Origin: Minisyncoccota bacterium
GTDB lineage: Bacteria > Patescibacteriota > Minisyncoccia > Minisyncoccales > GWA2-38-27
Direction: 5' to 3'
Assembly (NCBI GenBank): GCA_028717605.1
Contig: JAQUNM010000001.1
Span: forward strand, 1-29,377
DNA length: 29,377 bases
The notes under the pieces were generated by a model. That model worked only from the letters and a program-made list of their open reading frames with translations, was not told the DNA's origin and made no database searches. Both the position numbers and the translations under genes were made by a program. This document shows positions 3 to 5,046 of the stretch, one piece after another; positions within the stretch are counted from its first letter, which is position 1; each line of letters starts with the position of its first letter.

Positions 3-269
3 TCATTATCAGATACAGCTAAGGTAATAGTTAATAAAACAGCTGTAGCAGGAGCAGCAACTAATGTTTCTACTGGTTTGACTAATAATGCTTTACTAGA
101 TTCATTTTTTATCCCTTTAGTAATTACTTTATTAATTCTTTGGTTTTTCAAATTCTATATTGTGAGAATTGAGGCTTGGTTAGATAATAGAAAAAAAGAA
201 TATAAAGATTTTAGGTTTAAAAAAGCATTTGAGACAAAAGTTAATAAGATTAAATCTAGAGAATTATAA
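3..269 (+). CDS. 5'-truncated CDS; C-terminus of a probable surface/secreted protein with a TM anchor and basic tail
   Basis: The frame of track ORF 78..269 is open from position 3 (SLSDTAKVIVNKTAVAGAATNVSTGLTNNALLDSFFIPLVITLLILWFFK...). The track start is an internal TTG. A hydrophobic helix is followed by a K/R-rich tail. Confidence 0.75.
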   Translation, partial: SLSDTAKVIVNKTAVAGAATNVSTGLTNNALLDSFFIPLVITLLILWFFKFYIVRIEAWLDNRKKEYKDFRFKKAFETKVNKIKSREL

Positions 270-289
270 ACAAGATTTATCTTAATTCT

Positions 290-318
290 AAAAAGGACCG
301 TTTAAAACGGTCTTTTTT
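290..318. terminator. Bidirectional intrinsic terminator
   Basis: AAAAAGGACCGTT-TAA-AACGGTCTTTTTT hairpin with A/T tracts on both sides, between convergent genes. Confidence 0.8.
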
Positions 319-322
319 AGTT

Positions 323-354
323 AAAAGAAAAAACCTTAGATTTTCTCTAAGGTT
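323..354 (-). terminator. Intrinsic terminator of the minus-strand unit
   Basis: Perfect 9-bp stem AACCTTAGA(332-340)/TCTAAGGTT(346-354), 5-nt loop, followed on the minus strand by TTTTCTTTT. Confidence 0.7.
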
Positions 355-355
355 A

Positions 356-434
356 TGGACCCCCTTCCCACTGACTAAGTAGTTTGTCAGCTGTTAAATT
401 TCAACACCGAAAATAAGTTTCGGGGGAAGGGGGT
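356..434 (-). ncRNA. Putative tRNA-like cloverleaf (4-way junction) RNA of unknown family
   Basis: 359-369 ACCCCCTTCCC pairs perfectly with 424-434 GGGAAGGGGGT. Three internal hairpins (371-390, 392-406, 407-423). The minus strand ends ...GGGGG-T-CCA (358-356). No TTCRA T-loop or canonical anticodon loop, so not a standard tRNA. Confidence 0.5.
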
Positions 435-444
435 TATTTTAAAA

Positions 445-657
445 TTAATTTTCTATATTTACAGATATTACTTTATAATCATGATATCTTTCGAGATGCG
501 ATCTTACGGTTTTGTCTGTAAGACCATCAGAAGGCATAATTGCCCTACCAAGTTCAACTAAAGCATCACTCATTTTCTTTGTTTCTGTCAAAACTCCTAC
601 TTGTTTTGGTTCTCCGTTTTCTTTGCCAGAAACCATAAATATCCATTTATAATACAT
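445..657 (-). CDS. Hypothetical protein, 70 aa
   Basis: ORF with AGGAGGT SD (667-661) overlapping the upstream TAG stop. No recognisable motif. Confidence 0.75.
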   Translation of the reverse strand: MYYKWIFMVSGKENGEPKQVGVLTETKKMSDALVELGRAIMPSDGLTDKTVRSHLERYHDYKVISVNIEN

Positions 658-665
658 TTTACCTC

Positions 666-911
666 CTAGTTAAGGTTAATTACATATATTAGTAACGCTG
701 TTGTATCTAATATATAAGGTAACATTAATTCCCTTAAAAGAAGTTCTCTTTGGTCTGTTATATCTTGAGAAAATGGATTACAGGGTATTTTTCTGTCTAC
801 TATTCTTTGAGCTTCAAAAAAAACATGCATTAATTTCAGGGCTTTTTCGTGTTCTTTTTCTTTTAAGAATTCTTGAAATTTTTCATAATAAAGATCCGCA
901 GTTCTTTTCAT
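666..911 (-). CDS. Hypothetical protein, 81 aa, helical
   Basis: ORF with GGGAGG SD (921-916), downstream of a consensus promoter. No recognisable motif. Confidence 0.75.
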   Translation of the reverse strand: MKRTADLYYEKFQEFLKEKEHEKALKLMHVFFEAQRIVDRKIPCNPFSQDITDQRELLLRELMLPYILDTTALLIYVINLN

Positions 912-954
912 TATTCCTCCCTTTTTTAGTTTTTAATGTTCTTTTGATAAATTT

Positions 955-983
955 ATTATAATCTTTAAAATAAATTTTGTCAA
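955..983 (-). promoter_or_regulatory. Perfect-consensus sigma70 promoter
   Basis: Minus strand TTGACA (983-978), 17 nt, TATAAT (960-955). Confidence 0.85.
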
Positions 984-1000
984 TAGTAAAAATTTATTAA

Positions 1001-1029
1001 TTGACAAAGTTTTTTATTTAAAATAAAAT
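1001..1029 (+). promoter_or_regulatory. sigma70 promoter of the nrdD-like/SDR/rubrerythrin operon
   Basis: TTGACA (1001-1006), 17 nt, TAAAAT (1024-1029). Confidence 0.8.
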
Positions 1030-1060: not shown

Positions 1061-1327
1061 ATGAAAAAAATATTGTGTCATGATTGTAAAAAAGTAATTG
1101 AGCTAAAAGAAGAAGAAATTAAGGACGGATTTAGGGTTGTATATAAAAAAGATGGAAAAGTAATTACTATTTTTAAGTGTAAGAATTGTTTTTCAAAAAA
1201 TAAAGCTTTAAATAATTTTCAAGATTGTGAGGTTTATTCTCGAGTAGTTGGTTATTTAAGGCCAGTTAAGCAATGGAACCAAGGAAAACAAAAAGAATTT
1301 AAGCAAAGAAAAGAATACAAAATATGA
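1061..1327 (+). CDS. Stand-alone class III ribonucleotide reductase (NrdD) C-terminal domain: Zn ribbon plus glycyl-radical loop
   Basis: CHDC...CKNC followed by YSRVVGYLRPVKQWNQGKQKEF, the NrdD RxxGY glycyl-radical signature. Only 88 aa, no catalytic barrel. Confidence 0.85.
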   Translation: MKKILCHDCKKVIELKEEEIKDGFRVVYKKDGKVITIFKCKNCFSKNKALNNFQDCEVYSRVVGYLRPVKQWNQGKQKEFKQRKEYKI

Positions 1328-4614: not shown

Positions 4615-5046
4615 TTATTTTTCTATTTTCCAATCTATGTCTTTTTCTTTTCCGGCAAATTCTAGCCATTCATCATCTTTTGTAATAACAAACCATTTTT
4701 TCTTTGCTTTTGACCAAATCATAGGATTTGATCTATAATATGGTTTTTTAACAATTTCTTTTGGTTTTAATTTATCTAGTTCCAGCCATTTTTTAAACAC
4801 GGTTTCAATTGAGTAGTCTAGATTTCTTGTTTGCGCCCATTGAGCCACTTTATCAATTGCTTTCTCAGCCTTATTTACAGAACCAGCTAATTCTAAAAGT
4901 TGTTTGGCTGGTCTAGTAAATCTAGAATAAATTATTTTTTGTTTTTTAATGTTTTGTTTAATTTGATCTAAATTTAAACCCTTGCTATAAAAATAATGAT
5001 TTACTATTTTTTGAATATCTGTTTCTTGCTTTTTTACTTTTTCCAT
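4615..5046 (-). CDS. Hypothetical protein (about 143 aa, Trp-rich C-terminus)
   Basis: The track start at 5067 lies in the promoter region. ATG at 5046 (MEKVKK) follows TGCTATTAT. Confidence 0.8.
   Translation of the reverse strand: MEKVKKQETDIQKIVNHYFYSKGLNLDQIKQNIKKQKIIYSRFTRPAKQLLELAGSVNKAEKAIDKVAQWAQTRNLDYSIETVFKKWLELDKLKPKEIVKKPYYRSNPMIWSKAKKKWFVITKDDEWLEFAGKEKDIDWKIEK

Follow-up and report, generated by a model that had tools for sequence, protein, structure and literature searches.

A species-specific two-gene cassette with Shine-Dalgarno leaders and a structured 3' RNA in a Minisyncoccota genome, and the orphan genes that share its leader signal

The window analysed in this study is a whole contig of 29,377 nucleotides (nt; GenBank JAQUNM010000001.1) from a Minisyncoccota bacterium, whose assembly (GCA_028717605.1) comes from landfill metagenomes and comprises 65 contigs (0.53 Mb, 29.3% guanine plus cytosine [GC], 98% complete), in keeping with the Patescibacteria/CPR in size and composition. 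Near its left end, the minus strand of positions 290-983 carries a promoter, two small open reading frames (ORFs) of 81 and 70 codons (ORF81 and ORF70), an RNA that folds as a four-way junction and a terminator, which together form one unit of about 620 nt, referred to here as the cassette (Table 1). Within the searches run, the cassette is unique to the present species. Both ORFs are led by a perfect Shine-Dalgarno (SD) motif in a genome whose bulk genes, ribosomal-protein genes included, have none, and they count among about 20 SD-led genes which, on the best reading of the data, mark a flexible gene pool.

Table 1. Coordinates of the cassette, of its neighbouring signals and of SD-led genes on other contigs (UTR, untranslated region; aa, amino acids; bp, base pairs; pI, isoelectric point)
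Feature	Position	Strand	Remarks
Promoter, sigma-70-type	955..983	-	TTGACA 983-978, 17-nt spacer, TATAAT 960-955; 12/12 match
5' UTR, A-rich, ~37 nt	912..948	-	contains SD GGGAGG 921-916
ORF81	666..911	-	81 aa, pI 6.1, four predicted helices
ORF70 SD, AGGAGGT	661..667	-	4 nt upstream of ATG
ORF70	445..657	-	70 aa, pI 6.7, predicted beta-beta-alpha-alpha-beta domain
Four-way-junction RNA, 3' UTR	356..434	-	79 nt, GC-rich; begins 10 nt past ORF70 stop
Cassette intrinsic terminator	326..354	-	hairpin 354..332, 9-bp stem AACCUUAGA / UCUAAGGUU, then U-run
Bidirectional terminator hairpin, GGACCG...CGGTC	292..318	both	hairpin 296-312, A-run on one side, T-run on the other
Promoter of nrdD-like gene	1001-1029	+	back-to-back with cassette promoter
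SD-led gene	C3:14271	+	perfect GGAGG
SD-led gene	C3:17416	-	perfect GGAGG
SD-led gene	C9:11367	-	perfect GGAGG
SD-led gene	C10:51	+	perfect GGAGG
SD-led gene	C11:11772	-	perfect GGAGG
SD-led gene	C11:11418	-	perfect GGAGG
SD-led gene	C15:8416	+	perfect GGAGG
SD-led gene	C30:6087	-	perfect GGAGG
SD-led gene	C33:3356	-	perfect GGAGG
SD-led gene	C35:2072	-	perfect GGAGG
SD-led gene	C51:1740	-	perfect GGAGG

An earlier note on this DNA had described a perfect promoter, an SD site before each ORF, a cloverleaf and two terminators. The promoter was recovered on the minus strand with all 12 consensus positions matched, and it was the only perfect sigma-70-type promoter returned by the promoter scan; weaker promoter-like sites in the AT-rich stretch occurred at the frequency of shuffled sequence (14 observed vs. 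14.5 expected). Transcription of the cassette probably starts near position 948. Both SD sites were likewise confirmed. GGGAGG stands 4 nt before the ATG of ORF81, and the AGGAGGT of ORF70 overlaps the TAG stop of ORF81 (668-666), with a gap of 8 nt between the two genes; judged from the sequence, this is an arrangement that would allow translational coupling. Of the two terminators, the hairpin followed by a U-run at 354..332 stands as that of the cassette. The other hairpin (296-312) lies 26 nt past the stop of the convergent plus-strand gene at 3..269, and its folding energy is -11.5 kcal/mol on the plus strand and -8.5 kcal/mol on the minus strand. Because of its A-run and T-run flanks and its position after that stop, it is more likely the terminator of gene 3..269, which for the cassette would serve as a mere back-stop, probably outside the module.

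The promoters of the cassette and of the nrdD-like gene to its right have their -35 boxes 16 nt apart and form a 31-nt imperfect inverted repeat (954-984 / 1000-1030, 74% complementary). An operator was considered for this palindrome and dropped, as the two back-to-back promoters account for it. In both congeners, the nrdD-like gene was found directly behind a gene of the same orientation, so the divergent promoter region is specific to the present species.

Since no homologue is available on which conservation could be tested, the calling of the two genes relied on codon statistics, with a codon log-likelihood score trained on 242 long ORFs from the same genome. The scores per codon are 0.19 for ORF81 and 0.22 for ORF70 (0.28 +/- 0.10 in native genes), and in both ORFs the remaining five frames score negatively and contain 1-12 stops each. 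AlphaFold2 single-sequence models reached predicted local distance difference test values of 83 for ORF70 and 77 for ORF81, and together with the ESM models they are fairly confident for single-sequence input. In ORF81, the final helix (residues 62-80) is hydrophobic (Kyte-Doolittle 19-residue mean 1.66) and so could be a membrane anchor in the model. Both proteins are near-neutral, and neither is basic. We take ORF81 and ORF70 as real genes, with a small residual doubt that is weighed below.

No relative of either protein was identified. Neither ORF81 nor ORF70 had a match in Pfam, PHROGs or PADLOC, and no defence family of PADLOC-DB v2 was returned at E <= 1. A word-indexed search of 5.8 billion proteins retrieved no relative of either, and phmmer, run exhaustively on 1.84 billion cluster representatives, retrieved no true relative of ORF70; the phmmer matches obtained were long repetitive proteins with repeat-inflated scores, rejected on pairwise inspection. 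In six-frame searches, neither ORF was found in 100 relatives, including 2 genomes of the same genus and 38 of the same family, and ORF81 had no significant match in 400 class-level genomes. Its lone class-level match (E = 0.004) lies inside an ORF of 797 aa and is not significant across 400 genomes. Phage and plasmid records also contained no match to ORF81 or ORF70.

The same holds at the level of structure. Foldseek, which the earlier note had proposed to run on the predicted structures, gave no match above noise for ORF81 or ORF70 against PDB, AFDB clusters or BFVD, and neither did all-against-all VIA; the best fold match had Z = 5.8 (ORF70), under the stated noise level of 7-8. The matches of ORF70 to eukaryotic or archaeal ribosomal protein domains, to PurS and to small phage inhibitors are all of this sub-noise kind, and the ESM Atlas gave low-score, generic neighbours only. 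Pfam and fold searches detected no DNA-binding domain in either protein, specifically none of the antitoxin domains RHH, HTH, AbrB/SpoVT and Phd/YefM. Known toxin folds and families (RelE/ParE, MazF/CcdB, PIN/VapC, HicA, Doc, Zeta, GNAT and others) were also not detected in either. The biochemical function of ORF81 and ORF70 is not identifiable from any known family, and for the toxin-antitoxin or anti-phage function that the earlier note had suggested, nothing positive emerged from Pfam, PHROGs, PADLOC or the fold searches.

The cloverleaf of the earlier note is indeed present, in the form of a four-way junction. Its closing stem of 11 bp pairs ACCCCCUUCCC with GGGAAGGGGGU and encloses three 6-bp hairpins with loops of 5, 3 and 10 nt, with no unpaired bases at the junction, and the RNA ends with UCCA. 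The fold has an energy of -35.7 kcal/mol (z = -5.7; 0/200 shuffles as stable) and persists when the whole transcript is folded. The opposite strand folds nearly as well (-34.3 kcal/mol), the transcribed one having a slight advantage from two G-U pairs. The CCA behind a discriminator-like U, a placement that chance would give at a fixed offset with a probability of about 0.008, is suggestive and has no second example. ARAGORN detected no transfer RNA (tRNA) in it under default or relaxed thresholds, and Rfam 15 returned no family at the gathering threshold or at E <= 10 (including tRNA, tmRNA and ribozymes such as hammerhead, twister and hairpin), only chance-level matches, none with a meaningful score on 356-434. 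A tRNA identity was rejected on these negatives and on structure, namely a closing stem of 11 instead of 7 bp, no T-loop or D-loop motifs and no junction linkers.

The genome contains the junction RNA once, and a covariance model built from the single sequence did not find it in 38 genomes of the same family. A scan of viral contigs for the closing-stem pattern returned one chance match, inside a GC-rich coding region. A corresponding scan of metagenome contigs returned at least 120 loci; the 80 listed were scored with the covariance model and had only the specified stem in common. The most economical role would be that of a structure that protects or defines the 3' end of the messenger RNA (mRNA) before the terminator.

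The cassette is located between two conserved native genes. To the right, the nrdD-like gene and what follows it align with the congeners G001 and G002 at 74-76% identity, and the alignment ends at about 1015-1048; upstream of this break, G001 has murI and an ArsR-like gene, and G002 has a prephenate dehydrogenase/dehydratase fusion. To the left, gene 3..269 encodes the C-terminal part of a large protein that is conserved in six genomes of the family; in G002, one contig carries both its homologue and the nrdD-like gene, about 11 kb apart. The broken synteny on the right and the conserved neighbour on the left place the cassette, with a native gene on each side, exactly at a rearrangement junction. 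The survey of relatives that the earlier note had called for thus found neither protein and a break in synteny at the cassette. For the co-occurrence of ORFs and RNA, which the note had also wished to see checked, there is no second locus, as none of the three parts was found anywhere else. No integrase or repeat is visible in the 290 nt left of the cassette, where the contig ends, and no mobile-element gene is present in the adjoining sequence up to that end. The cassette has a GC content of 0.30 and host-like codon usage. A read search recovered the locus in low-depth contigs of the same strain (100% identical) from four landfill or biofilm studies; no presence/absence polymorphism of the cassette was seen among them, and no RNA run contained the locus.

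In a further genus of the family, the homologue of this left neighbour is accompanied by a different SD-led gene. There, in G027 (L257, C16; 1921-2265, plus strand), a secreted-looking orphan of 114 aa with the leader AAGGAGGUG is the next gene downstream of that homologue, an arrangement that hints at a recurrent insertion site.

SD motifs are otherwise rare in this genome. GGAG or GAGG precedes 4.8% of 187 unambiguous starts, whose leaders are A/T-rich, and 5.0% of random windows. Within the window, none of 30 other starts has a placed GGAGG, in agreement with the earlier note, which had seen no comparable SD elsewhere. Common SD use across the genome, which the note had named as a finding that would speak against an acquired module, is therefore not what was observed. 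The assembly contains no 16S ribosomal RNA (rRNA) gene of its own. In G001, from the same genus, the 16S rRNA (L035, about 4700-4740) ends in ...GGAUCAUAUCUAAAU, with the tail GGAUCAUAUCU, and in G006 (L032, 2940-3000) and G007 (L033, minus strand), from the same family, the tail is GGAUCAUUUC. The canonical tail is GGAUCACCUCCUUA, and the CCUCC anti-SD is missing in all three. The passages of PMC9297842 on these motifs describe a Parcubacteria subgroup without the anti-SD motif, which matches the 16S tails of these relatives. As the 16S rRNA gene is not assembled here, loss of the anti-SD in the present species is deduced from the congener and from the genome-wide absence of SD sites. Judging from the congener, the SD sites of the cassette would have no ribosomal partner. 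The 16S rRNA genes of G001 and G010 were also observed to carry a large insertion after the ~1400 region.

Against this background, a small class of genes retains the motif. Of 467 occurrences of GGAGG in the genome, 23 lie 3-9 nt before a 5'-proximal ATG (ORFs of at least 45 codons), while 0.2-1.5% of permuted or complementary motifs lie at gene starts (P-value = 6e-13, Fisher test). Among about 530 plausible genes, 19 are GGAGG-led, so two adjacent ones would be expected by chance at about 1.3e-3. These genes are short (median 130 aa vs. 224 aa for the rest) and GC-richer (median 0.336 vs. 0.291, P-value = 5e-4). Only 2 of 20 SD-led genes have a Pfam family, the 18 without one being both cassette ORFs and 16 of the 18 further genes, compared with 16 of 20 size-matched controls without SD, many of which are ribosomal proteins (P-value = 1.7e-5). 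Most are monocistronic; each has its own TTGACA promoter and a long leader, and ends in a GC-rich terminator. The contigs that bear them have native GC contents (0.27-0.31), and mis-binned contigs were rejected as their source for this reason. Weak tendencies were found for their location: 3 of 22 have a tRNA gene within 100 nt, and 9 of 22 lie at contig ends (P-value = 0.06). One adjoins the RNase P RNA gene.

Two SD-led genes are paralogues. The proteins of C15:8416-8805 (plus strand) and C51:1348-1740 (minus strand), of 129 and 130 aa, are 38% identical, and both genes keep AGGAGGAU (AGGAGGAT) before the ATG. This family was not found in 38 genomes of the same family as the present species, and the C15 copy had no match among 5.8 billion proteins. 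Beyond this genome, a comparable though smaller set exists in the congener G001, where 8 of 40 GGAGG-ATG sites mark gene starts. A family-wide SD-led class was ruled out by G006, in which 3 of 36 AGGAGG-ATG sites are at gene starts. A search of the present genome for an anti-SD small RNA returned no candidate with a CCUCC loop.

Two further observations concern these leaders. The last 25 nt of the ORF81 leader (window 911-935, minus strand) match those of a second SD-led orphan gene, ORF77 (C33:3352-3376, minus strand), at 92% identity, with the common sequence ACUAAAA.AGGGAGGAA.AAUG; this could be a common leader module or a chance likeness of low-complexity sequence (blastn-short E = 0.02). 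In addition, the intergenic region C42:3403-3450, read on the minus strand, contains two AAAGGAGGUGAU motifs about 35 nt apart, which may be the SD sites of micro-ORFs of fewer than 45 codons.

We consider it probable, with considerable room for doubt, that the locus is a species-specific, autonomous, moron-like accessory bicistronic cassette inserted between two conserved native genes. Under this reading, the cassette would have been imported from mobile or foreign DNA whose base composition is similar, such as that of SD-using relatives or their mobile elements. Its SD sites would lack the usual 16S pairing, given the genus tail GGAUCAUAUCU in place of GGAUCACCUCCUUA, and translation would proceed by the SD-independent route of the host on an A-rich, unstructured leader. 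ORF81 (helical, possibly membrane-anchored) and ORF70 (a small soluble alpha/beta protein) may act as a pair, and the four-way junction upstream of the terminator may protect or define the 3' end of their mRNA.

Several points weigh against this interpretation. The GC content and codon usage of the cassette are indistinguishable from those of the host, and no donor or homologue is available, so acquisition is deduced only from distribution and signals. The earlier proposal of an acquired module holds in that the unit is self-contained, species-specific, SD-led and located at a synteny break; it is not borne out by composition, which is host-like, or by any identifiable donor. The anti-SD loss is itself derived from the congener and the missing SD sites, the species' own 16S rRNA being unassembled. 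Functionless SD motifs, about 20 perfect GGAGG in a genome of 29% GC, should decay quickly, and the retention of AGGAGGAT in paralogues of 38% identity hints at selection rather than relic status. Additionally, the runs in which the locus was found are all DNA runs, and the contig end 290 nt from the cassette limits the left context.

The persistence of the motif raises the alternative that GGAGG is the functional signal of an accessory regulon of about 20 genes, read by an RNA-binding protein or a trans-acting C-rich RNA. We hold this to be unlikely, though deserving some weight. The roughly tenfold enrichment at gene starts with a consistent spacing of 4-9 nt, the conservation of the motif between the diverged paralogues, host-like codon usage despite perfect sites, and the SD-led genes of G001 and of G027, the latter by the same conserved gene, all agree with it. 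However, the genome yielded no small RNA with a CCUCC loop, G006 has few placed sites, and every SD-led gene tested is a species-specific orphan, so that a continuing influx of foreign genes fits at least as well as a conserved regulon. A selected GGAGG might also belong to a separate 'foreign-gene' translation regime, with a reader other than 16S rRNA and with the junction RNA processed from the cassette, which we regard as an outside chance worth keeping in mind.

If the two proteins are a pair, a type II-like toxin-antitoxin system would be one form of it, in which a poison and a translationally coupled neutraliser repress their own promoter. The coupled layout of two small adjacent genes with an 8-nt gap, the palindromic surroundings of their strong promoter and the accessory, strain-specific nature of a locus at a synteny break are all compatible with such a system, and the modelled hydrophobic C-terminal helix of ORF81 could act on the membrane. 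Yet no toxin or antitoxin family was matched in Pfam or PADLOC, no fold like RelE, MazF, PIN, HicA, Doc, RHH, AbrB, Phd or HTH rose above noise, and the palindrome is explained by the two promoters. The missing family and fold matches, the near-neutral pI values and the lack of a detected DNA-binding domain argue against a classical type II pair, which we judge improbable. An anti-phage or abortive-infection unit, in which the CCA-ended junction RNA would serve as an RNA antitoxin or, once released by RNase P, as a mimic or decoy of tRNA, appears highly improbable. The junction RNA is far more stable than chance, lies inside the transcript with its G-U pairs slightly in favour of the transcribed strand, and carries the discriminator-like U and CCA end; but ARAGORN and Rfam were negative, the tRNA motifs and linker bases are absent, the closing stem is too long, both strands fold almost equally, PADLOC was empty for both ORFs, and a singleton RNA offers no covariation support. 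Furthermore, type III antitoxin RNAs are tandem repeats upstream of the toxin, which is not seen in the cassette. There is finally only a small chance that the ORFs are not genes and that the locus is a non-coding spacer or a small-RNA locus with fortuitous open frames. The absence of homologues, and thus of conservation evidence, and the presence of the locus in DNA runs only would permit this. Against it stand 81 and 70 open codons in DNA of 28-32% GC in which the other five frames are closed by stops, gene-like codon scores, perfect and equally spaced SD motifs before both ATGs, and predicted folds that are confident for single sequences.

The favoured reading, a moron-like accessory cassette, takes its name from phage morons, which are autonomous promoter-gene-terminator units in accessory DNA. 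Like them, the cassette has its own strong promoter, ribosome-binding sites and terminator, runs opposite to the local gene direction with unrelated native genes on either side, and encodes small orphan proteins absent from close relatives. Unlike them, it has two genes and a structured RNA in addition, and no prophage or mobile element is recognisable around it. With type II toxin-antitoxin loci it shares two small, tightly spaced and possibly coupled genes under a single strong promoter in a palindromic region, a single terminator and an accessory distribution, and it differs in having no family or fold match, no DNA-binding domain and no basic toxin-like partner. Some mRNAs carry tRNA-like structures or stabilising stem-loops at the 3' end; viral tRNA-like structures and mascRNA-type elements are examples. 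The junction RNA resembles them in that its four arms span about 76 nt, NCCA follows, and the whole stands at the 3' end of a coding transcript, immediately ahead of a terminator. It is different in its stem of 11 vs. 7 bp, in the lack of linkers and of T-, D- and anticodon-loop signatures, in its rejection by ARAGORN and Rfam, and in being a singleton without covariation support.

Bacteroidota are a lineage with little or no SD-led initiation. The present genome resembles them and the Parcubacteria subgroup described in passages of PMC9297842 in that the bulk of genes has no SD, the 16S rRNA of relatives has no CCUCC and leaders are A-rich. The difference is that about 20 orphan genes, both cassette genes included, keep perfect GGAGG motifs, and the passages of PMC9297842 on SD and anti-SD mention no such SD-led orphan minority. 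Taken alone, the cassette is one more orphan accessory unit, and the pattern of the class is of more interest than the cassette itself. The SD-led orphan minority is a practical marker of a flexible, probably imported gene pool in ultra-small bacteria, and it raises the testable question of whether, and how, a ribosome without anti-SD translates SD-led messages.

The nrdD-like gene on the right flank (1061-1327, plus strand) is also of some note. It encodes a stand-alone protein of 88 aa with two CxxC pairs (Pfam NRDD, E = 2e-13), which carries the C-terminal glycyl-radical motif of NrdD, RVVGYLRP. In both congeners the gene is kept beside SDR and rubrerythrin genes.

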